A stretch of DNA of 40,654 nt from Patescibacteria group bacterium. GTDB taxonomy: Bacteria > Patescibacteriota > Minisyncoccia > HO2-45-28. The translations under genes were made by a program, and so were the position numbers. The notes below the pieces were generated by a model. That model was given only the letters and a program-made list of their open reading frames with translations. It was not told the origin of the DNA and ran no database searches. Positions 8,088-20,352 of this stretch are shown here, piece by piece. Position 1 is the stretch's first letter. The number at the start of each line of letters is the position of its first letter. The stretch is from positions 1-40,654 of the forward strand of contig JADFMT010000003.1 in NCBI GenBank assembly GCA_022563755.1, given 5' to 3'.

Positions 8088-8379
8088 CTCAAAACAAAAA
8101 GAATGGCATCGCGTCATTCTTTTTGTTTTGAGTTGATGATAGAAACAGGAATCGAACCCTACGAAAGGGGGTACCAGCCGCGAGGCTCTTTCGCAAAGCG
8201 AAAAGCCCCGTCTCCGGGGAAAACTGTAGTTTTCCCCGTGGCGGAAAACAGCGAGACTGAGCTTGTCGAAGCCGAGCGCTAGAAATCCTTCGACACTGAG
8301 CTCAGGACGAAGTGCCGAAGGATTTCTAGGGAGGACCATAAGCGACGACGGGTTCTAGGAGCGCAGCGACGGATTCCCT
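8088..8379 (+). repeat. tRNA-linked structured element, copy 1 (Phe-type)
   Basis: A/T hairpin, then GGAATCGAACCC, a ~100-bp core shared with 15164-15443 and 20074-20352, then GGGTTC..GATTCCCT. Confidence 0.9.
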
Positions 8380-8926: not shown

Positions 8927-9415
8927 TTATTCGTGTTTGATTTTGAGTTTTTGTACCCGTTTTTTGTCGAGTTTAGGAAGACGGATGGTTAGAAGACCAT
9001 TCTTGATTGAAGCTTCTGCAGTTTCCACATCAATTTCCTGCGGGAGCATAATAGCCCGTGAAAACGACCCCCAATAGAGTTCTTGATGAAAATAGCGATC
9101 ATCCGAGACCTCGCGGTGTTTTTCACGCCTCCCCTTAATAGTTACCATGTCTCGAGTAATCGAAACATCTAACTCCTCCGGTTTTAGACCGGCAACTATG
9201 GATTGCATCACAATCTCGTCAGGCGTCTGATATACATCGGCCATAAGCTGTCCCTCACCCTCAACCGGAGGAAGCGGACTTTTTCGCCCCGGGGTGCCTT
9301 GAGCCACGGCCGCATCTGCCGTTACCTGTTCTTCACCGCGTAAAGTGGGTTCGTCGTTGTCTGCCGGATACGATCCGGTGAGTCGTTCAAAAAATAGTCG
9401 TCGATCTTTAGGCAT
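8927..9415 (-). CDS. Hsp20/alpha-crystallin small heat shock protein
   Basis: DVYQT..GLKPEELDVSI..TIKGRR..ELYWGSFSRAIMLP..ASIKNGLLTIRLPK. Confidence 0.95.
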   Translation of the reverse strand: MPKDRRLFFERLTGSYPADNDEPTLRGEEQVTADAAVAQGTPGRKSPLPPVEGEGQLMADVYQTPDEIVMQSIVAGLKPEELDVSITRDMVTIKGRREKHREVSDDRYFHQELYWGSFSRAIMLPQEIDVETAEASIKNGLLTIRLPKLDKKRVQKLKIKHE

Positions 9416-9459
9416 ATATTATTTAATATATCAAATTATAGCTGAATAAATAAATTTCA

Positions 9460-10173
9460 TCAGTGGATAAGTTTTTTTAGCTTCTCAAATGATAGAATAA
9501 GAATCATCCCTCCCAGCCATACCACAGAAAAAATATAAAGAAGGCTGGATCCACCTCCTATTAGTATAAAAAAATTGAAAAAAGTATGCAAGAGGGTTGC
9601 AAGGGAAATTCCCCAAAACACGTTACGCAGCCGATGCTCGGGATGAAAAAATGAATATGCAACCGAAAACCCTACAATGGCTGAAGTGAGAATATGAAGA
9701 AGCGTAGCCCCCACAAAGCGCAGATGAATGGCTACGAAACCACTGATAAACTCGTGCTGAAAAACATTAAAAAGCATAAAAATGTTCTCTACGGCCGCAA
9801 ATCCAAGTGCGGCCGTAATCAAATAGATAGGTGCATCAATAGGCTCATCAAAAAAGGGTTTTCGCAAAGCGGCCCAATAGGCAGCCCCGTACTTCAAGAC
9901 CTCCTCAGCACCCGCCCAAAGAAAGAGAAGAAAAAACGATGGAAGAGCTCTTGGCCAGAATCCGAGCGCAATGCCCGCGCCGTATATAATCTCCTCTAAA
10001 ATTAAGGCAATGGGCACGGCTAGAGCACCTGCAACAAACGTCAAAAACAAAATCCGCTTGGGCTCAGGATGAGGATCCTCGCGCAGCCAAAACCAGAGCC
10101 AAACGCCAGCGGCCAAAAGTCCGCCCGCAAACGCAAAAAGACCGGCTATGGGGCTGGCAATCACTTGGGCCAC
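9460..10173 (-). CDS. PrsW family glutamic-type intramembrane protease
   Basis: D-HPEP, AEEVLKY, ALGFAAVEN, LLH, LHTFFN; multiple TM helices. Confidence 0.92.
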   Translation of the reverse strand: MAQVIASPIAGLFAFAGGLLAAGVWLWFWLREDPHPEPKRILFLTFVAGALAVPIALILEEIIYGAGIALGFWPRALPSFFLLFLWAGAEEVLKYGAAYWAALRKPFFDEPIDAPIYLITAALGFAAVENIFMLFNVFQHEFISGFVAIHLRFVGATLLHILTSAIVGFSVAYSFFHPEHRLRNVFWGISLATLLHTFFNFFILIGGGSSLLYIFSVVWLGGMILILSFEKLKKLIH

Positions 10174-12386
10174 GACTCAACCATTAAAAGATCCTTGCTG
10201 CTCGCACGAACCGCTTCCCATATATTCTCTGTAATATGGGGTAGAAACGGATGGAGCAATCTCAGGCAGTCCGTCAATACCAAGACTAAAATCTCTTGCG
10301 TGCGTGTTTTAAGCGCGGGGTCGCCCAGCTGCTTTTTTGAGCTCTCTAAATATTGATCACAGAAATCATGCCAGAAAAAATCATACAGTTTGTGAAGTGC
10401 GTGCCCAAATTGATAATGGTCGATGTGACGGGTTACTTCTTTTTTTGTTTTTTTAAGAGACTCCAAAATTTTTCGGTCTTCTTTCGTTTTAGGATGCGGT
10501 TTTTTAAAGTAGTCCCCCCTCGCCCCCGCTTCGCCAAGGCTACGCAGGGCGAGCAAGGCTTCGGGGGGCGACTCATTCCGTTCGAGAACGAATCGAGCCG
10601 CATTCCACATTTTATTTAAAAATTTCTTCCCTGCAACCAGCGCTTCCTCAGACCAATGGATGTCCTGCGTACCCATGGTTTGCCACGTAAGTCCAAAGCG
10701 AAGCGCGTCCGTTCCATACTTCTCGATCATGACTATTGGATCTACAACATTACCAAGACTTTTAGACATCTTCCGGCCTTTTTGATCAAGCACCGTGGCA
10801 TGAGTATAACTTGTTTTAAACGGGCTCTTTTTGGTAAATTCAAGACCCGAGAAAACCATGCGCACGATCCAGAGAAAAAATATTTCGCGCGCCGATGATA
10901 TCATATCCGTAGGATAAAAAGTTTTTAGATCCTTGGTTTTTTGAGGCCACTCAAGGGTTGCAAACGGCCAGAGGGCTGAAGAAAACCACGTATCAAGCAC
11001 ATCCGGAATTTGCTTGTAGCGAGCGTCACAATGCTTGCATGCGGGTTCTGTTTTTGAAACAACCATGTCAATACATTTTTCAATATCTTTTTCTCTCCCG
11101 CGCTTTGGAATACATACGGGATCATGTTTCCAAACCGGCAGACGGTGACCCCACCAGAGTTGACGCGAGATATTCCAGTCCTTCACCTGTCTTAACCATT
11201 CAAGAAAGATCTTCTTTCGCTGCGGCGGAATAAAGGTAATTTTCTCTCCCCGAACCACCTGTCTCGTTTTTTTAGCAAGCTCGCGCATGGAAAGAAACCA
11301 CTGCAACGAAACCAGAGGTTCAATGATGGTTTGACACCGTTCGCATCTGCCAATCCGATGGATATATTCCTCTTCTTTCTCAAGCAGCCCCGCTTCTCTT
11401 AATGCCTCCACCACCTTTTTTCGGCATTCAAGCGTCTTCAATCCCATGCAAATGGAACCGGCCTCTTTTGTCATTCTTCCCTGCTGGTTAATCACCTCAT
11501 ACGATAGAAGTTTATGACGGAGCGCAATCTCAAAATCTAAAGGATCGTGTAGAGGAGTTATCTTTACAGCCCCCGTTCCAAACTTCTGGTCAATCTCTTT
11601 GTCGGCAATAATCGGAATCGTTCTGTCTTTAATCGGAAGTCTTGCCTTTTCGCCAACAAGATTTTTGTAGCGAGGATCGCTCGGGTGAACCGCAACCGCA
11701 GCATCTCCCAGCATGGTCTCGGGCCGCGTTGTGGCAACCGTGATAAAGCCGCCTGCTTCGAGTGGATATTTGATGAACCAAAGACTTCCTTTCTCTTCTA
11801 CGTGTTCCACTTCGAGATCAGAAATAGATGTTTGGCATCGGCTACACCAATTAATGATCCGTTTTCCCTGATAAATCCATCCTTTTTTGTAGTAGTGCTC
11901 GAATGCTGCCTTCACGGCTTCTTGGTACTCATCATCCATGGTGAAGCGGCCTCTAGTCCAATCACACGAAAGACCCAACAATTTTAACTCTTGATCAATG
12001 GCGTCCCCATTTTCTTTCATCCACTGCCACATTTTCTCAAGAAACTTTTCTTTCCCCAAATCAAATCGCGTCTTGTTTTCTTTTCGAAGTTCCCGCTCCA
12101 CAACATATTGCGCAGCAATACCGGCATGATCTTTGCCGGGCAAAAAAAGGGCTTTGTATCCTTGCATGCGTCGCTTACGAATAACGATGTCGGAGAGGAT
12201 ATTTTCCAGTGCATGCCCAACATGAATATGGCCCGTAATATTGGGTGGGGCCATCATAACGGTAAAGGATTTTGGACGCTTGCCGGGTAATTTGTCGGGA
12301 TTAAAATAACCGCTTTTTTCCCATTTTTTATAGATATTCTTCTCTACCTTGTTAGGGTCGTAGGGTTTGGAGAAATCTACTTTCAT
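10161..12386 (-). CDS. valS: Valine--tRNA ligase
   Basis: PPNITG-IHVGH, DHAGIA, ATTRPETMLGD, DWNISRQLWWGH, DVLDTWFSS, KMSKSLGN; no C-terminal coiled coil. Confidence 0.97.
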   Translation of the reverse strand: MKVDFSKPYDPNKVEKNIYKKWEKSGYFNPDKLPGKRPKSFTVMMAPPNITGHIHVGHALENILSDIVIRKRRMQGYKALFLPGKDHAGIAAQYVVERELRKENKTRFDLGKEKFLEKMWQWMKENGDAIDQELKLLGLSCDWTRGRFTMDDEYQEAVKAAFEHYYKKGWIYQGKRIINWCSRCQTSISDLEVEHVEEKGSLWFIKYPLEAGGFITVATTRPETMLGDAAVAVHPSDPRYKNLVGEKARLPIKDRTIPIIADKEIDQKFGTGAVKITPLHDPLDFEIALRHKLLSYEVINQQGRMTKEAGSICMGLKTLECRKKVVEALREAGLLEKEEEYIHRIGRCERCQTIIEPLVSLQWFLSMRELAKKTRQVVRGEKITFIPPQRKKIFLEWLRQVKDWNISRQLWWGHRLPVWKHDPVCIPKRGREKDIEKCIDMVVSKTEPACKHCDARYKQIPDVLDTWFSSALWPFATLEWPQKTKDLKTFYPTDMISSAREIFFLWIVRMVFSGLEFTKKSPFKTSYTHATVLDQKGRKMSKSLGNVVDPIVMIEKYGTDALRFGLTWQTMGTQDIHWSEEALVAGKKFLNKMWNAARFVLERNESPPEALLALRSLGEAGARGDYFKKPHPKTKEDRKILESLKKTKKEVTRHIDHYQFGHALHKLYDFFWHDFCDQYLESSKKQLGDPALKTRTQEILVLVLTDCLRLLHPFLPHITENIWEAVRASSKDLLMVESWPK
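10511..10573. repeat. REP-like palindrome in frame within valS
   Basis: TCGCCCCC..CTTCGCCAAGGCTACG..GGGGGCGA inverted repeat encoding SPPEALLALRSLGEAGARGD. Confidence 0.65.
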
Positions 12387-12390
12387 TTCC

Positions 12391-13545
12391 CTATTTTATC
12401 ACTTTTTTTTGCCCAAAAGAAAGACGGCCATCTGCTCTCAATTTTTTGGGTTTTGTAAAATCTTTTTTAAGCGCATGAAAATAGCTAGCGGCTGCAATCA
12501 TGGCTGCATTGTCACCCGTAAATGCGCCTTCTGGATAAAGAAAAGATATTTTAAGTATTTTTTTAAGTTCTTTTTGAAGATGCTTATTAGCCGCTACCCC
12601 ACCTCCTAAAATAACGGTTTTTGGATTGAATTTTCTAACGGCTTTTAAGGTTTTTGCAACCAAAACCTCCACTGCTGCATCTTCAAATTCTCGAGCAACC
12701 AATGCCTTATTTAACTTCGGATTTTCCCGAAGCGCATACAGTACTGCGGTTTTCAATCCCGAAAAACTAAAATTAAAATCCGGGGATTTTATCATCGGCC
12801 TTGGAAGTTTAATGTTCGACGCTCGGTGTCGAACCGTTGAAGCGAGTTTTGCCACTTTAGGACCGCCGGGAAACGGCAAACCCAAAAGCCGTCCCACTTT
12901 ATCAAATGCCTCACCCACCGCATCATCCAGAGTTTCGCCAATGATTTTATAATCCAGCCACTTTTTCATGAAAACGAGTTCCGTATGCCCGCCGCTAACC
13001 AAGAGCGCAATCGCTGGGAAGTGAATTACCGGAAAAGACGAAGTGTCTTTGGCCGTGGCGACTCCGGCTGGCTGTGCGATCCTTAATTTGGTCGGAACGA
13101 CCTTTAGAGATATAGGGGCGGAGCCACGGGCAGATGACATCTCGTCTTTATGTAACAAAACAGAGGCTATATGTCCCTCCATATGATTCGCTGCAACAAT
13201 CGGCTTTCTATATTCTTCCGCAAGCCCACGCGCAAAATTGATCCCTTCCCAAAGACATGGTTCAAGTCCGGGTCCTACCGTTACCGCAATAACATCGGCG
13301 TTTTGTATCTTATGTTTAGTGTCTTGTATTTTTTTAAAAAGAATTGGCAAATTACGTTGATGCTCTCTTTTTGCAAGACGAGGAACCACGCCGCCAAAAG
13401 GGGCGTGGGTTTTCACTTGGGAAGAAACGAGATTTATTAAAATATCAAAACGCGGCTTTGAAAAACCACCCTCGGCTTCGATTACCACAAGAGCTGTCTC
13501 ATCACATGATGTTTCAACGGCAAAAATTTTCATAAATTTCCTCAT
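12391..13545 (-). CDS. tsaD: tRNA N6-adenosine threonylcarbamoyltransferase TsaD
   Basis: ETSCDET, GGVVP, GPGL, NHMEGH, SGGHT, DDAVGEAFDK, FSFSGLKT, GGVAAN, DNAAMIA. True start may be 13533. Confidence 0.97.
   Translation of the reverse strand: MRKFMKIFAVETSCDETALVVIEAEGGFSKPRFDILINLVSSQVKTHAPFGGVVPRLAKREHQRNLPILFKKIQDTKHKIQNADVIAVTVGPGLEPCLWEGINFARGLAEEYRKPIVAANHMEGHIASVLLHKDEMSSARGSAPISLKVVPTKLRIAQPAGVATAKDTSSFPVIHFPAIALLVSGGHTELVFMKKWLDYKIIGETLDDAVGEAFDKVGRLLGLPFPGGPKVAKLASTVRHRASNIKLPRPMIKSPDFNFSFSGLKTAVLYALRENPKLNKALVAREFEDAAVEVLVAKTLKAVRKFNPKTVILGGGVAANKHLQKELKKILKISFLYPEGAFTGDNAAMIAAASYFHALKKDFTKPKKLRADGRLSFGQKKVIK
13034..13149. repeat. ~116-bp inverted-repeat element in frame within tsaD
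   Basis: AAAGACGA..GTGTC..CCGTGGC pairs with GCCACGG..GACAT..TCGTCTTT; adds about 38 aa between HMEGH and FPAIALLVSGGHT. Confidence 0.7.
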
Positions 13546-13593: not shown

Positions 13594-14544
13594 CTAAGAA
13601 GATTTCAGGAAAAACCGAATGCCAAAAAGTTTACGATTCATCTCTTGGCCCGCTAAACCCACGCGCATTGTGCTATCCGGGCCATTATAGTCCTCGTAAA
13701 ATAAAGAAAGTCCGCTTAGGCGTTTTTTAGACAAAAACATATCATATGCAACACCAAAAACGTAAGACTTGTTGCCTTTGCGGCTCTCTATATGACCGCT
13801 TGCGGAAAGATCAGATACCGGATTCACGCGATAGACAAACCTTGGTGCGCCAAAAAGGGATCGATAAGATTTTCGCACATCCCGATTAAAGAACGAACTA
13901 AATACATCATCAAATTTCGCTTCCCACAAAATCGCATCGAGCCGATATTCAAACGTGAACTTTGGAGCTATCTGCCACTGATGAGCAAAACGGCAAAATA
14001 CGAAATCCCGCGCGCTTATCTCACTAACGTCGATCTTCCGGTTTTCAACAAATTTTCTTGTCTCGCTACTTTCCAGTCCGCCGAACGAATGATGCTGATA
14101 TCCGCAACCAACAAACAGCTCTGGCCGAAAATACCACCGGATATCAAATCCGAGACTCCAAATAGAGGCCCTAACAGATTCCTCTTCGCCCTCGTTAAAG
14201 AAGACTCGGTTTCCGCCCCGCCAAACCCAGGCGAGTTGCTCCGGCCACCAATCGCATATTCCTAAAGCGCGTGTTGGGAGAAGCGAAAGGAGTGGAAACC
14301 CAAACCATGCGCCCTCAATGCTTCCTTCTCTAGAATACAAACCGTTTAAACGACCCTCTAAATCCGCTTTTGTCAAAAGGGGCTCAAACCGCACCTCATC
14401 AAACGAGAAAGACTTTCGGTATTTTGAATACGAAGAGACATAGCATTCATCGTCGTCCGCTTCCCTCGCAAAAGAGGTTGCGGGAGCGACGATTGAAAAA
14501 ACGAGCAGGGTCACAAGAACCCACCAATATCTTATTTTTCTCAT
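13594..14544 (-). CDS. Hypothetical exported protein, beta-barrel-like
   Basis: Signal peptide (..APATSFA), GAGGAGG Shine-Dalgarno, TTGACG-N17-TAGCAT promoter, amphipathic aromatic beta-strand patterns. Confidence 0.75.
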   Translation of the reverse strand: MRKIRYWWVLVTLLVFSIVAPATSFAREADDDECYVSSYSKYRKSFSFDEVRFEPLLTKADLEGRLNGLYSREGSIEGAWFGFPLLSLLPTRALGICDWWPEQLAWVWRGGNRVFFNEGEEESVRASIWSLGFDIRWYFRPELFVGCGYQHHSFGGLESSETRKFVENRKIDVSEISARDFVFCRFAHQWQIAPKFTFEYRLDAILWEAKFDDVFSSFFNRDVRKSYRSLFGAPRFVYRVNPVSDLSASGHIESRKGNKSYVFGVAYDMFLSKKRLSGLSLFYEDYNGPDSTMRVGLAGQEMNRKLFGIRFFLKSS

Positions 14545-14645
14545 CTCTCTACCTCCTCTACAGGTGTAAATGAGCGATTTTTACTACCCCAATGCTATCA
14601 AAATAGGCTTCGGACGTCAACGAGTCTAAAATATTACTTCTTTAT

Positions 14646-14697
14646 GTGCATTTTAGGAGAACAGGTTATTTATGGTGAGTTTGTCGAACTAGAACCT
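14646..14697. repeat. Gly-array junction J5, interrupted by a 23-nt REP-like insert
   Basis: GTGCATTTTAGGAGAACAGGTTA[tttatggtgagtttgtcgaacta]GAACCT. Confidence 0.75.
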
Positions 14698-14720
14698 GTT
14701 TTTTTATATAAAATGTGAAG

Positions 14721-15053
14721 TTAAGGAGTTAGTTTCCATTCTCCCTCCACATGCTTAGCAACTGAATGTCCACCGACTGGAATGCCTTCTTGATCAAAAA
14801 AAGTAACGTGAATAGCGGTAATCGAAGCCTGCCCTTCTGAGTATTGTCCCTTTCTCATGTATGAGTACTCTGTATCTCCATCTTCTCCAGAAACTTTGAT
14901 GTCCCACAGGTAAAGACCGCGTTCATCTTCAAGTTTTCGTACGTCTTCATATCCTTCCTTCCCGACTAATTGTTCAAAAACTGATTGTACCTCTTCTGGG
15001 GTGGGAATAGCCCCTGGTCCTTTTTCAAAAGTGTTTGGTGATCCTTCATGCAT
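14721..15053 (-). CDS. Hypothetical acidic protein
   Basis: 110-aa ORF lying between two junction motifs, with a near-leaderless promoter. Confidence 0.8.
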   Translation of the reverse strand: MHEGSPNTFEKGPGAIPTPEEVQSVFEQLVGKEGYEDVRKLEDERGLYLWDIKVSGEDGDTEYSYMRKGQYSEGQASITAIHVTFFDQEGIPVGGHSVAKHVEGEWKLTP

Positions 15054-15083
15054 ATTTAGATAATACTACAAACCTTATGTTCC

Positions 15084-15121
15084 GTGTATTTAATAAAGCT
15101 ATGTGAAATGTTAGAACCTCT
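15084..15121. repeat. Gly-array junction J4 (degenerate)
   Basis: GTGTATTTAA...GTTAGAACCTCT; the last 12 nt are identical to J3. Confidence 0.55.
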
Positions 15122-15163
15122 ACCAAATTACTGAAAAACCGTTTAGTTTTCAGAAAAACCAGT

Positions 15164-15443
15164 GGGAGAATCCGCTTCCCTGCCTGCCGGCAGACAGGGC
15201 TAGAACTCGTCGTCCCTCGACTTCGCTCGGGACTCCCTAGAAACCGAGGGGGTTTCTAGCGCTCGTCCGCCAGCTGGCGGACTCACTGTTTTCCGCCACG
15301 GGGAAAACTACAGTTTTCCCCGGAGACGGGGCTTTTCGCTTTACGAAAGAGCCTCGCGTCTGGCACCCCCTTTCGCGAGTTCGATTCTCTAACTCATCAA
15401 ATCAAAACAAAAAGAACGACATAAAGCCGTTCTTTTTGTTTTG
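15164..15443 (-). repeat. tRNA-linked structured element, copy 2 (Gly-type)
   Basis: Same hairpin and core as copy 1. Read on the minus strand it carries GAGAATCGAACTC, GAGTTC and GATTCTCCC, matching the tRNA-Gly T-arm. Confidence 0.9.
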
Positions 15444-15473
15444 TGCACTTTAGGGGAATAGGTTAGAACCTCT
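15443..15473. repeat. Gly-array junction J3
   Basis: GTGCACTTTAGGGGAATAGGTTAGAACCTCT, 28/31 identical to J2. Confidence 0.85.
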
Positions 15474-15619
15474 CTTAAGGCATTAACTGATTATTCTACA
15501 TTTGAAATGGTAACATTTTTAGTAGCGTTATTCCCATAGCACCTCGACCCGATATTAAATTGACACTCTCTACCACTTTTTGCATTATAAACTAAGTATA
15601 TAATTTAACTAATAATGCT

Positions 15620-16597
15620 TTGAAAAAGTATACTTTAAAAAGAGAAATACAAATCCAGAGATTTAAGAATAATCCTTTATTGGAGCCAGATCAATCTCAT
15701 GCCTGGATGAGTAAGAATGTATTTAACTGCGGGGTTATTATTGACGATGACGGCTTCTATAAAATGCTCTTTCGTGGTTCTTGGACTGAAGATCAGTCAA
15801 TGTCTGATTTGGGACTTGCAATCAGCGTTAACGGAAAAAAATGGTATGTTCTGGATAAACCAGTTCTAAAGTGTGGATTTAATAAGTTTTGCACATATGG
15901 CATTGACGACCCAAGAATTGTGAAATGGATTGACGGTTGGAAATATATTTTTGCAGCAATTCGCCCGTATAAGAAGGAATATAGAACAGTAGGTATTTTT
16001 AGAACAAAAAATTTCTTAGAATATGAGTGGGTTGGAATGCCATTCAACTTCGAAGATGTAGATGCTTCTATTTTCCCTGAACCAATTAACGGTTGGGCAT
16101 ATTTACTTCATAGAAAAGCTCCGCATATATGGATTTCTCGAACGAAAGATATGAGTTTAGAAAGTGGCTGGCAGGATATCCAAATTTTGATCAATAAAGA
16201 CCAATTTTATCGGCATCCTGAACATGGTGTTCTGCCTGACAAAATAGGTATTGCCGGACCACCAATAAGAACTCCCAAAGGTTGGCTGTTAATTACACAC
16301 GCGGTTCATCGATGGGACAAGAAGATAACAAGGTACTCTTTTCTTCTCAACCGGTCATACTCACTTAGCTTTGTAGTACTTGATTTAGAGAATCCTACAA
16401 AGGTTCTCTACGTCCACCCAAAACCCATATTATGGCCGGAGGAAAGACATGAAATTGTGGGCCTTATTCCAAATGTGGTCTTTAGCTGCGCCACTGTTGA
16501 TACCGGAGGCGATTCACTCTATATCTACTGGGGTGGAGCCGACACGGTAATTTGTGGTGGTAAACTTATGAAAAAAGATCTACCAATGTGCTATTAA
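15620..16597 (+). CDS. Predicted glycosidase/phosphorylase, GH130 (DUF377)-like beta-propeller
   Basis: NPLLEP..VFNCG, GIDDPRI, FPEPING, LHR, PPIRTPKGWLLITH, LDLENP, PNVVFSC, YIYWGGADT; TTG start; AT-rich. Confidence 0.88.
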   Translation: MKKYTLKREIQIQRFKNNPLLEPDQSHAWMSKNVFNCGVIIDDDGFYKMLFRGSWTEDQSMSDLGLAISVNGKKWYVLDKPVLKCGFNKFCTYGIDDPRIVKWIDGWKYIFAAIRPYKKEYRTVGIFRTKNFLEYEWVGMPFNFEDVDASIFPEPINGWAYLLHRKAPHIWISRTKDMSLESGWQDIQILINKDQFYRHPEHGVLPDKIGIAGPPIRTPKGWLLITHAVHRWDKKITRYSFLLNRSYSLSFVVLDLENPTKVLYVHPKPILWPEERHEIVGLIPNVVFSCATVDTGGDSLYIYWGGADTVICGGKLMKKDLPMCY

Positions 16598-16606
16598 ACC
16601 CTCTCT

Positions 16607-16638
16607 GCCTACTTCTAAATTTAGAAGTAGGCTCTTTT
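16607..16638 (+). terminator. Intrinsic terminator (perfect 26-bp palindrome)
   Basis: GCCTACTTCTAAATTTAGAAGTAGGC followed by TCTTTT. Confidence 0.7.
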
Positions 16639-16639
16639 A

Positions 16640-16670
16640 GTACACTTTAGGGGAACAGGTTAAAACCTCT
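16640..16670. repeat. Gly-array junction J2
   Basis: GTACACTTTAGGGGAACAGGTTAAAACCTCT. Confidence 0.85.
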
Positions 16671-16744
16671 TTTAGAAGCAGAGTTTAAGCCCCCCCCGTT
16701 TTTTCATACTGCTTATAGTACATCCGTAAAAAATTGGCGTGTTT

Positions 16745-18142
16745 TTATGGTGCGTACACATAATACACCCTCCCCTTATAGTCGTCTGTGAAGAAAAACG
16801 AATTTACATCATTTTGTAAAATATCGACTGGCCGCCCGAAGCGCTCTATGTCTCCGGTTGGCTGATCGGAATGTGCGTAAGCGGTGCTAATAAGCCACCC
16901 AGTTTGCGGTCTCTTTTCGGTTAAAAAACCATCCATGAATACCTCTTGTTCTCCATCCTTTGATACCCTAACTATGTGATACCCTGCACCGATCTTCGGC
17001 TCAAAAGAACCATGTAGAGCAACAAGAAATGTATTTTTTAGAACTGAATGTGCATCCTTAGAAAAATATTCAATACCAAGTGGTGCCGCATGTGGCTCAA
17101 ACGCGGAAAATGAACGCGGCACTTGTGCACATGAAAATGATTGTGTCCATTTTCGGGAAGTATCGGGATAAATTTTTCCATTTAATTCGTAACAGAATGG
17201 CCATCCATAATACTCACCTTCGATGAGCTTATACATACCATCGTCCGGCGCTTGAGGTCCAAGATGATCAGCTCCGTTCGCTGTCGCGTATAATTCTCTG
17301 CCTGCCCATGTAAAACCGACTGTATTCCGCAGCCCATCTGCATAGATCCGCTTATTGCCACCATCGGGATTTATGCTATATATCATAGCGCGCATTTCGT
17401 CCTCAGGTTGCTCACACGCATTACAACCACTGCCAACAGAAACATACAACCGATTATCGTAAAATTTGATCGTACGAGTGATATGCCACACAACACTTGA
17501 TTCTCCAGGCACCTGCTTATTGGGAAATGTCGTTATTATCTCCGGATCACCTGATGGCTCTGTGTCTCCTGCGCTATATGGATACCGAACGATATGCGCG
17601 GTAAGCGCAATATATATCCACTCTTGGCCATTTTTATCAGTATAAAATGCGACGCTATTAGGTCCCCGCAATCCAGAAAGATAGGTGCTTTTTGTTTGGA
17701 ATCGCTTATTTATTTCGTCAAAATTTTCTAAAACATAGATTTTTCCCTCGTGGGAAAGATTCATACTAACGAGATCTGGCACAAACATTCTTCCATCTGG
17801 ACTCATAGCCATAAATCGTGCTTTGCCCAAACCTTCTGCCGCAACAGAGATGTTAAAATCCTCAGCAACCTCGAACATGACTTCAGTTCCGTCTTCAAAT
17901 ATGATGATCCGAGGCACAAGATTGATAGTCGGAAGTACATCACTTTTACCGTCACCGACCTTAATCTGTGTGTTATTGAGAATTGCTTCAAAATCTGCTT
18001 GTTTTTCATCACCAATGTTATCAGAGGTAGAATTATCGGCCTTGTCTGAACGAGTCGTATTGTTAAAAAGAAACACTCCGCCCATAATCAGTACCAAGGC
18101 GATGACGATTCCCATAATCAAATTTTTAACATTCATAGACAC
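16745..18142 (-). CDS. Membrane-anchored glucose/sorbosone dehydrogenase family (PQQ-type propeller) protein
   Basis: N-terminal TM helix; H-TRTI, LYVSVGSGCNAC, GLRNTVG, YGWPFC, PHAAPLG, VALHGS, GRPVD. Confidence 0.88.
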   Translation of the reverse strand: MSMNVKNLIMGIVIALVLIMGGVFLFNNTTRSDKADNSTSDNIGDEKQADFEAILNNTQIKVGDGKSDVLPTINLVPRIIIFEDGTEVMFEVAEDFNISVAAEGLGKARFMAMSPDGRMFVPDLVSMNLSHEGKIYVLENFDEINKRFQTKSTYLSGLRGPNSVAFYTDKNGQEWIYIALTAHIVRYPYSAGDTEPSGDPEIITTFPNKQVPGESSVVWHITRTIKFYDNRLYVSVGSGCNACEQPEDEMRAMIYSINPDGGNKRIYADGLRNTVGFTWAGRELYATANGADHLGPQAPDDGMYKLIEGEYYGWPFCYELNGKIYPDTSRKWTQSFSCAQVPRSFSAFEPHAAPLGIEYFSKDAHSVLKNTFLVALHGSFEPKIGAGYHIVRVSKDGEQEVFMDGFLTEKRPQTGWLISTAYAHSDQPTGDIERFGRPVDILQNDVNSFFFTDDYKGRVYYVYAP

Positions 18143-18178
18143 TTATTTTTACTATACATTAACAGAACATAATAAAAG

Positions 18179-18203
18179 GTGTACTCACAGCCGTGTTAGA
18201 ACC
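18179..18203. repeat. Gly-array junction J1 (degenerate)
   Basis: GTGTAC-N10-GTTAGAACC. Confidence 0.55.
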
Positions 18204-18333
18204 CGCAAAAGTTGTGATTTAAGAACGGTCTAAGCGCTACTCAAGCGCCAAAACTTGTATTCTGTGCGGAGCCCCTCACTTCGTTTCGGGACGCTACATT
18301 TTTCAGCCAATCGCTTCGCTCTTGGGAAAAATG

Positions 18334-18404
18334 TGCGGGTAGGGAGAATCGAACTCCCGTCATCTGATTGGCAACCAGATGTTTTGCCACTAAACTATAC
18401 CCGC
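18334..18404 (-). tRNA. tRNA-Gly(GCC)
   Basis: GCGGGTA/TACCCGC acceptor, TCTGG-TT-GCC-AA-TCAGA, T-arm GGGAG-TTCGATT-CTCCC. Confidence 0.95.
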
Positions 18405-20073: not shown

Positions 20074-20352
20074 GTGGGCGTTGGAGGACTCCGTCGCTTC
20101 CTGCCGGCAGGCAGGCGCTTCTAGAACCCGTCGTCCCTCGATTTTACTCGGGACTCCCTAGAAACCCCTCGGTTTCTAGCGCTCGCTTCGCTCGCTGTTT
20201 TCCGCCACGGGGAAAACTACAGTTTTCCCCGAAGACGGGGCTTTTCGCTTTGCGAAAGAGCCTCGCGTCTGGCACCCCCTTTCGTGGGTTCGAGTCCCAA
20301 CAAACACAATACACAAAATAACAAACACCATTAAAAAGATGTTTATTATTTT
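20074..20352 (-). repeat. tRNA-linked structured element, copy 3 (Val-type) with 18-bp tRNA 3' duplication
   Basis: Core shared with copies 1 and 2; GTGGGCGTTGGAGGACTC occurs at 20074-20091 and 20353-20370. Confidence 0.92.

Follow-up and report, generated by a model that had tools for sequence, protein, structure and literature searches.

Junction repeats behind a patescibacterial tRNA-Gly gene as probable recombination sites of a modular gene-capture array

Introduction

Although the 0.5-1 Mb genomes of bacteria of the candidate phyla radiation (CPR) show few recognisable mobile elements, they differ in accessory genes. How such genes are captured is the question raised by a locus in a 40,654-nucleotide (nt) stretch of Patescibacteria group bacterium DNA (contig JADFMT010000003.1), which is the whole stretch that was analysed, is called the window below and supplies all window coordinates; it belongs to a genome of 781,144 bases (G000). 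Here four genes lie between tsaD (12391-13545) and tRNA-Gly(gcc), and a first-pass annotation had noticed among them five short junction repeats (J1 to J5), which it took for att-like scars of sequential integration. We propose that these repeats are probably not inert scars but recombination sites in working order, belonging to a modular array that captures genes at the 3' end of tRNA-Gly(gcc), and that cassettes without a recombinase of their own were likely added there successively by site-specific recombination. The observation of the array itself is solid.

Results

The five junctions, at 18179 (J1), 16640 (J2), 15443 (J3), 15084 (J4) and 14646 (J5), all lie on the plus strand in one orientation, just as the first-pass annotation had placed them, but they are of two kinds and not of the single repeat type that it described. 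Modules, cores, tails and units are given below in the reading direction of the tRNA, which is the minus strand of the window. J2, J3 and J5 are full sites, in which a 9-nt core, GGTTCTAAC, is followed by a 19-nt tail, CTGTTCCCCTAAAGTGCAC, while J1 and J4 are core only and have just GTTAGAACC in common. The full 28-nt pattern, GTRYAYTTTAGGRGAAYAGGTTARAACC, is exact at J3 and J2, with 0.00 occurrences expected from shuffles; J5 is, as had been claimed, the same site apart from an insert, namely 23 nt at 14669-14691 that split its core. When up to five mismatches were allowed, the whole genome matched this pattern at J2, J3 and J5 alone. The shorter GTTAGAACC has four copies in the window, all on the plus strand and within 3.1 kb, against a shuffle mean of 0.72 (2 of 100 shuffles reach four). 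In the consensus GTRYAY...GTTARAACC proposed for all junctions, the left part, GTRYAY, is not conserved at J1 and J4, and a homologous cassette in genome G374 lacks it after its core. Beside the J1 and J4 cores it is the tRNA-side sequence that is conserved: J1 adjoins a 69-nt module, P, and J4 the final ~50 nt of a noncoding module ~110 nt long.

The content between the junctions is variable, and its breakpoints fall at the junctions, so that both conditions named as refuting the first-pass annotation's inference turned out in its favour. The order rluA, tRNA-Gly(gcc), intervening DNA, tsaD and class I tRNA synthetase is kept in G001, G003, G005 and G006, and the gap from tRNA to tsaD ranges from ~1 nt (G005) through 365 nt (G006), 1.27 kb (G001) and 2.8 kb (G003) to 4.8 kb in the window. 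A 2.74-kb array in G003 starts after the ...CCCGCAC of the tRNA and finishes with ...AAAGTGCAC, after which comes the flank CACTTCGCCCACTCCGC; in G006, of the same genus, these 17 letters directly follow the tRNA. Within the array, one contig from an environmental read run (X1) matches the GH130 gene and J2 of the window as far as 16669 (9 differences in 315 letters), continues with 90 other letters and resumes at 18194 in P. Because this contig joins 16669 to 18194 in this way, the 1524-nt dehydrogenase cassette is replaced in it between two cores. Contigs of runs X2 and X3 (one data set filed twice) cease to match the window at the same position, 16669. The share of the stretch's sampled words present in a read run never exceeded 0.11, and no run yielded the window's own strain; window parts lacking read coverage carry no information. 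Cassette mobility is indicated by G374, a genome of another family, where the acidic-protein cassette stands behind P at tRNA-Gly(tcc) and is closed by core and tail: its alignment with the window cassette begins at the core and stops at ...GCAC, and 84 of the protein's 110 residues (76%) are identical, as against 58% for TsaD.

A motif scan of other genomes, which the first-pass annotation had recommended, recovered the junction widely, if sporadically, and again beside tRNA genes. The 22-mer TTTAGGRGAAYAGGTTARAACC occurs in eight GTDB species genomes, labelled Tagabacteria, Lloydbacteria, Parcubacteria, Saccharibacteria or Patescibacteria, and in 21 metagenome stretches, with no match in viral contigs. 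Allowing up to two mismatches, 8 genomes in a sample of 401 from the class (the window's own counted) carry the motif, at 12 places, 8 of them exact; it is thus sporadic. After removal of duplicates there were 27 distinct full sites in 22 loci, the motif being almost unchanged among them, and 19 of these loci have a same-strand tRNA gene upstream: glycine in 15 (all three anticodons), Leu(gag) in two, Ile(tat) in one and Tyr in one. The remaining three loci have only 120-410 nt of upstream sequence. Between families that share just 53-69% identity in TsaD, J hardly changes, and sites so conserved are unlike inert scars. Two further matches were set aside: in L019 (2328-2349) and L030, the J3 form of the 22-mer falls inside an apparent 23S rRNA of another organism, probably by chance given how large the collection is (in L030, tRNA-Ile and tRNA-Ala lie 2.4 kb away). 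A GH130 homologue in G019 (L002) is not flanked by cores and is uninformative for the array.

Comparison of the loci reveals how units are built. P directly follows the ...GCAC of a tRNA or the tail of a preceding J, measures 69 nt in 15 of 16 copies from other loci, and ends in the core. A core may be followed by a gene cassette or by a noncoding module of ~110 or ~140 nt, each again ending in the core; the two noncoding modules are present in some units and absent from others, always between cores. The last core of a unit is followed by the tail, and the ...GCAC of the tail by native flank or by a new P, which opens the next unit. In L029 an 'empty' unit consists of P joined straight to the tail, whereas in L033 three tandem units of 3.9, 4.0 and 0.8 kb stand behind tRNA-Tyr with their cargo present and with no recombinase among the array open reading frames (ORFs) examined. 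Gene cassettes of other loci, on reading, often show promoter-like boxes after the core. The best copies of the core with its arms read AACAGG-TTCTAA-CCTGTT, a short inverted repeat around a 6-nt centre, and an inverted repeat around a short centre is the layout of a tyrosine-recombinase core site.

Two side observations concern these loci. The cargo of L033 (616-3594 and 4296-7823) comprises an ImmA/IrrE-type helix-turn-helix peptidase with a 'Beta protein' (PF14350), which may form a defence pair, and a TrmB regulator with a three-gene ABC transporter. Junction sites themselves also take small insertions, as in the J5 core, already mentioned, and in the last tail of G003, which contains a GC-rich hairpin of ~78 nt (L041, ~9612-9689).

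The first-pass annotation had also suggested looking for the motif at the ends of recombinase genes; as far as the search extended, no array contained such a gene. Pfam and NCBIfam searches found no recombinase among the four array proteins of the window, nor did Pfam among ten array ORFs of L026, L033 and L040. With three serine recombinases as tblastn queries, none was detected in or beside the J array of any of the 22 loci, the sole trace being a 24-residue fragment beside a tRNA in L015, ~2 kb from its J. Serine recombinases occur in 2 of 11 J-bearing genomes, at other tRNA genes and with no J nearby; G000, G002, G003 and G028 have none. Exactly one tyrosine recombinase (~300 aa) was present in eight of nine J-bearing genomes searched, and none in the ninth, which is 55% complete. 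That of G000 (308 aa), encoded on contig C22 outside the window, scores as XerD/XerC/XerA and falls far under the cut-offs for integron integrases (131 bits against 265, and 82 against 435). The transposase domain Y1_Tnp had no match in G000 and weak matches (26-39 bits) in G002, G003 and G028, which makes three of the four genomes searched.

The large serine recombinases found at tRNA genes are a separate integrative system of the same bacteria, likewise targeting tRNAs. In L058 (G404, contig C14), the gene for a 552-aa large serine recombinase (9198-10856) overlaps tRNA-Leu(caa) (10708-10793) on the opposite strand, and the fragment in L015 (1171-1242) is identical to the C-terminus of the other, 533-aa, serine recombinase of that contig.

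Is J itself derived from the tRNA? The first-pass annotation had likened it to a stretched tRNA-Gly 3' end, and this resemblance does not exceed chance: 855 of 2000 shuffles of J align as well or better, and tRNA-Gly(gcc) ranks only 26th among the genome's 47 tRNAs by likeness to J. J opens with letters resembling a generic T-arm and closes with ...GCAC, as the tRNA does; since the same 69-nt P follows either the tRNA's ...GCAC or the tail's ...GTGCAC, J takes the place of the tRNA 3' end by position, not as a recognisable copy. As an aside, most of the 47 tRNA genes of G000 lack an encoded CCA, and in many the discriminator base is followed by a C, so that they end, like the J tail, in ...CAC.

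Other identities were considered for J and discarded. As a hidden tRNA it found no support: ARAGORN at lowered thresholds made no call at J in 25 sequences (its three calls there were one real tRNA-Gly and two clear of J), and the empty unit of L029 matched no tRNA model at E values up to 10 and folded no better than shuffles. As a known RNA it fared no better, Rfam at gathering thresholds returning only tRNAs in the window and nine J loci; under permissive settings, the sole match near a junction was a sub-threshold Brucella small RNA model, driven by the terminator hairpin adjoining J3. A chromosomal dif site is contradicted by sporadic occurrence and by position near dnaA: in the complete 837-kb genome of G003, dnaA lies at 551.6 kb and the arrays at 585-618 kb, hence 33-66 kb away. 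Nor did short dif-like words, when G000 was scanned for them, reveal a convincing site.

The window's own array can be followed from tRNA-Gly(gcc) (18333-18404, minus strand; ARAGORN, and 72.9 bits with the Rfam tRNA model), its anchor, immediately after whose ...CCCGCAC inserted DNA begins. The first piece is a 69-nt relic unit (18264-18332, minus strand; read from the letters, its length counted by hand) ending ...CTCCGCAC, that is, ...CCGCAC. Next comes P (18195-18263, minus), recognised by BLAST and cross-locus comparison, with matches of 74-91% identity in G002 and G003 and with the J1 core at its end (18195-18203). Cassette 1 (16659-18194, minus) carries a glucose/sorbosone-dehydrogenase-like, membrane-anchored protein (gene 16745-18142; Pfam GSDH, E = 5e-08) and terminates in the core GGTTTTAAC (16659-16667), after which the J2 tail CTGTTCCCCTAAAGTGTAC (16640-16658, minus; identified, like that of J3, by pattern match and cross-locus sites) closes unit A.

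Unit B (15462-16639, minus) contains a GH130 glycoside phosphorylase gene on the plus strand, reversed in the array (15620-16597; Pfam Glyco_hydro_130, E = 1e-30), with a match below cut-off to the NCBIfam beta-1,2-mannobiose phosphorylase. It has a promoter-like site at 15560-15588 (10 of 12 positions match), a hairpin terminator at 16607-16632 and the J3 core at 15462-15470, and is covered by environmental contigs 96-99% alike. The J3 tail CTATTCCCCTAAAGTGCAC (15443-15461, minus) is succeeded by a terminator hairpin (15403-15442) with a GC-rich multi-hairpin structured element (together 15150-15442, plus; fold z-scores -7.3 and -8.1), and then by the 3' remnant of a ~110-nt noncoding module (15110-15162, minus), which ends in the J4 core (15110-15118), is 85-88% identical to copies in G003, G006 and G028, and has homologues preceding gene cassettes in L013, L015, L021, L028, L038 and L041. 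Beyond it lie the acidic-protein cassette (14665-15109, minus; gene 14721-15053), whose 110-aa product matched nothing in Pfam or NCBIfam and which ends in the split J5 core, and the J5 tail CTGTTCTCCTAAAATGCAC (14646-14664, minus; genome pattern scan and cross-locus sites), the last junction. The first-pass annotation's rule of one module per interval thus holds roughly, but fails between J3 and J4, where a terminator hairpin, the structured element and a module remnant share an interval.

The 316-aa barrel-like gene (13594-14544, minus), which had been counted as a further module, is beyond the last junction and has no J on its far side, although it stands within the variable gap between tRNA and tsaD. 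A homologue, 22% identical, occupies the same place in G001, where it is the only content of the gap, and is missing from G003, G005 and G006; its product had no Pfam or NCBIfam match. A weak protein-atlas lead connects this protein to clusters of phage and bacterial hypothetical proteins, including one that bears the label phage outer-membrane protein (score 0.95, with recognition under the usual level). Separately, the relic at 18264-18332 resembles the upstream region of a small ORF of ~85 aa that directly follows tRNA-Gly in G006 (L045) and L039, and that resembles a GIY-YIG nuclease by eye, from its translation only.

The structured element belongs to a dispersed family of GC-rich, multi-hairpin sequences of ~150-300 nt, with copies in the window at 15150-15443 (plus), 8090-8288 (minus) and 20094-20296 (plus), and on G000 contigs C10, C24, C2, C31 and probably C28 and C47; the array copy has six others in G000. 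Fold z-scores are -7 to -8, relatives also have copies, and no credible Rfam match was obtained (best E = 0.0032, far below the gathering score). A terminator hairpin closes most of the copies examined, and the copies that were checked face the 3' end of a tRNA gene convergently; the strands of the closing stem copy the T-arm and acceptor region of the neighbouring tRNA and change with it between copies. Because the family elsewhere abuts tRNA 3' ends, the copy inside the array probably marks a former neighbour of tRNA-Gly.

Discussion

Working recombination sites, as proposed here, would account for the array as follows. Whole units would be inserted right after a tRNA-type end, ...GCAC, each closing with a J site of core and tail; every insertion would bring a fresh ...GCAC, and units would therefore stack head to tail, the newest probably adjoining the tRNA. 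Within a unit, core-ending cassettes would be inserted or exchanged right after another core, the pieces exchanged being genes with their own expression signals and noncoding modules of ~88, 110 and 140 nt; circular intermediates may be involved. As no cassette carries a recombinase gene, the enzyme would have to act in trans, and a tyrosine recombinase is favoured because the core with its arms looks like a tyrosine-recombinase core site. A recombinase supplied by a transient element heads the candidates, at a little under an even chance; an enzyme of some other kind is possible, and the cell's single Xer-type recombinase is a more tentative choice. That CPR bacteria possess an integron-like, two-tier capture system of their own, with insertion at tRNA 3' ends, shuffling at 9-nt cores and the single Xer-type recombinase acting away from dif, is an extension that we consider decidedly doubtful; were it true, even cells with minimal genomes and hardly any classical mobile elements would retain a dedicated way to acquire accessory genes.

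Several results weigh against this interpretation. No recombinase is tied to J sites, and the mechanism has been drawn from anatomy throughout. The bare core occurs six times in the genome, about the number expected analytically, and is remarkable only for being clustered on one strand. The region's promoter-like sites (11) match the shuffles (10.6) in number, and for this reason statements that cassettes bring their own promoters refer to single sites. Breakpoint evidence from reads comprises one shallow contig of run X1 (depth 3.8, its P part only 76% like the window), together with the contigs of X2 and X3; the left edge of the cassette shared with G374 is blurred, P there resembling the 110-nt module here. 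The first-pass annotation had suggested seeking excised circles in reads, and no circular junction was seen in the read contigs. A contig that 'goes back' from 18238 to 15442 (X4, depth 3) was examined as a circle and rejected, as 24 of its letters differ from the window; it is better read as the tail-to-P joint of a relative.

The strongest rival, though an unlikely one in our judgement, is that the array consists of decayed complete elements, each of which once had its own integrase, for instance a large serine recombinase, so that J would be a fossil attR-type scar. Large serine recombinases do adjoin tRNA genes in related genomes, at tRNA-Leu(caa) in G404 and at tRNA-Met in G008, a genome of the same family; a C-terminal remnant of 24 residues persists beside a tRNA in L015; and serine integrases tolerate little site identity, which would fit the short shared ...GCAC. 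However, by tblastn the arrays of the 22 loci have no serine-recombinase gene or sizeable fragment in or beside them, the ten array ORFs surveyed with Pfam yielded no recombinase of any kind, and four of the genomes lack serine recombinases entirely. Moreover, fossil scars should drift, whereas J has stayed near-identical between families with TsaD identities of 53-69%, and decay of complete elements does not readily account for units as small as 88 nt or for core-bounded noncoding modules of 110-140 nt.

It is also conceivable, but improbable, that J, P and the 110- and 140-nt modules are regulatory or RNA elements, and that cassettes are swapped by DNA uptake and homologous recombination with no site-specific enzyme. 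CPR bacteria are thought to take up DNA, and tRNA, P and the other modules would supply conserved stretches of 70-140 nt; on the plus strand, short hairpins with T runs behind them are formed by J5 and J2, and P is fixed in length, with a hairpin whose sides co-change by eye. Against this, the breakpoints coincide with the borders of a core that, at 9 nt, could not support homologous recombination, and the G003 insertion, compared with G006, shares only ...GCAC on its far side. No Rfam family matched the modules in nine loci, the fold of P joined to the tail does not exceed that of shuffles (z = +0.58), and presence in 8 of 401 genomes would be unexpected of a housekeeping signal. Least credible of all are non-autonomous single-strand elements of the IS200/IS605 or rolling-circle type inserting 3' of a short word, which would suit modules that follow and end in the same word with no target duplication and all on one strand, and the weak Y1 matches in three relatives, but not the lack of a Y1 transposase in G000, the absence of hairpins near cassette left ends (by eye, with no systematic test) or the restriction of arrays to tRNA ends instead of dispersal.

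Should the repeats be the recombination sites that we take them for, the arrays would account for the exchange of glycan enzymes, transporters, proteases and defence-type genes at a safe site with no integrase for each element. The junction sequence offers a probe for collecting the cassettes of these uncultured bacteria from metagenomes and for tracking down the enzyme that acts on it.

Full-text searching of the literature found no published description of such arrays in CPR bacteria, and the closest comparisons come from elsewhere. Elements of the IMEX type (integrative mobile elements exploiting Xer) and plasmid dif modules are recombinase-less, lie between short conserved sites and depend on Xer; the modules here are likewise without recombinase between short sites, with host Xer as the only tyrosine recombinase on hand. 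In contrast, the arrays of G003 lie 33-66 kb from dnaA and not at the terminus, and J is tied to tRNA ends, sporadic among genomes and, on reading, devoid of long dif-type arms. The IS200/IS605 type differs in the two respects given above, its Y1_Tnp domain and left-end hairpins. Nearer in organisation are the cis-mobilizable elements (CIMEs) beside ICESt1-type elements and the ccr-less staphylococcal cassette chromosome (SCC) composites at rlmH, which are recombinase-less, att-flanked, tandem and mobilised in trans by a known autonomous partner and recombinase. The present array is equally att-flanked, without its own recombinase and stacked at the 3' end of a conserved gene, but no cognate autonomous element with the same site was found among the 22 loci or viral contigs.

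Integrons and clusters of attC sites lacking integron integrases (CALINs) share with this locus a reserved site that collects small, mostly one-gene cassettes without mobility genes, the site lying at one cassette end, all sites facing the same way and a short invariant core recurring at every joint. No integron integrase stands beside the array, however, the window having no tyrosine recombinase at all, although CALINs need none. attC sites are imperfect palindromes of ~57-141 nt with paired inner and outer boxes, whereas here a 9-nt core and 19-nt tail appear to take the place of a folded attC and the conserved site spans only ~28-45 nt; some cassette ends do show, by eye, an inverted core copy 8 nt upstream, in an order opposite to the attC layout. 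Also unlike integrons are the tRNA 3' end as anchor and the two tiers of joint, and where integron cassettes are promoterless, in one orientation and served by a common promoter, those here appear to bring their own promoters and the GH130 gene is reversed.

Tycheposons of Prochlorococcus carry their own tyrosine or large serine recombinase, often with replication genes, and are flanked by partial tRNA copies (bioRxiv 10.1101/2020.12.28.424599). Their islands resemble the present array in that cargo is integrated at tRNA genes and accretes in tandem, newcomers pushing older elements inward, in a streamlined host genome with few other mobile elements (bioRxiv 10.1101/2020.12.28.424599). They differ in their recombinase, which the units here lack, and in their repeat, which here is a separate conserved sequence and not a tRNA copy. 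In style, the array thus resembles integrons, ccr-less SCC arrays and tycheposon islands, and it belongs to none of them.

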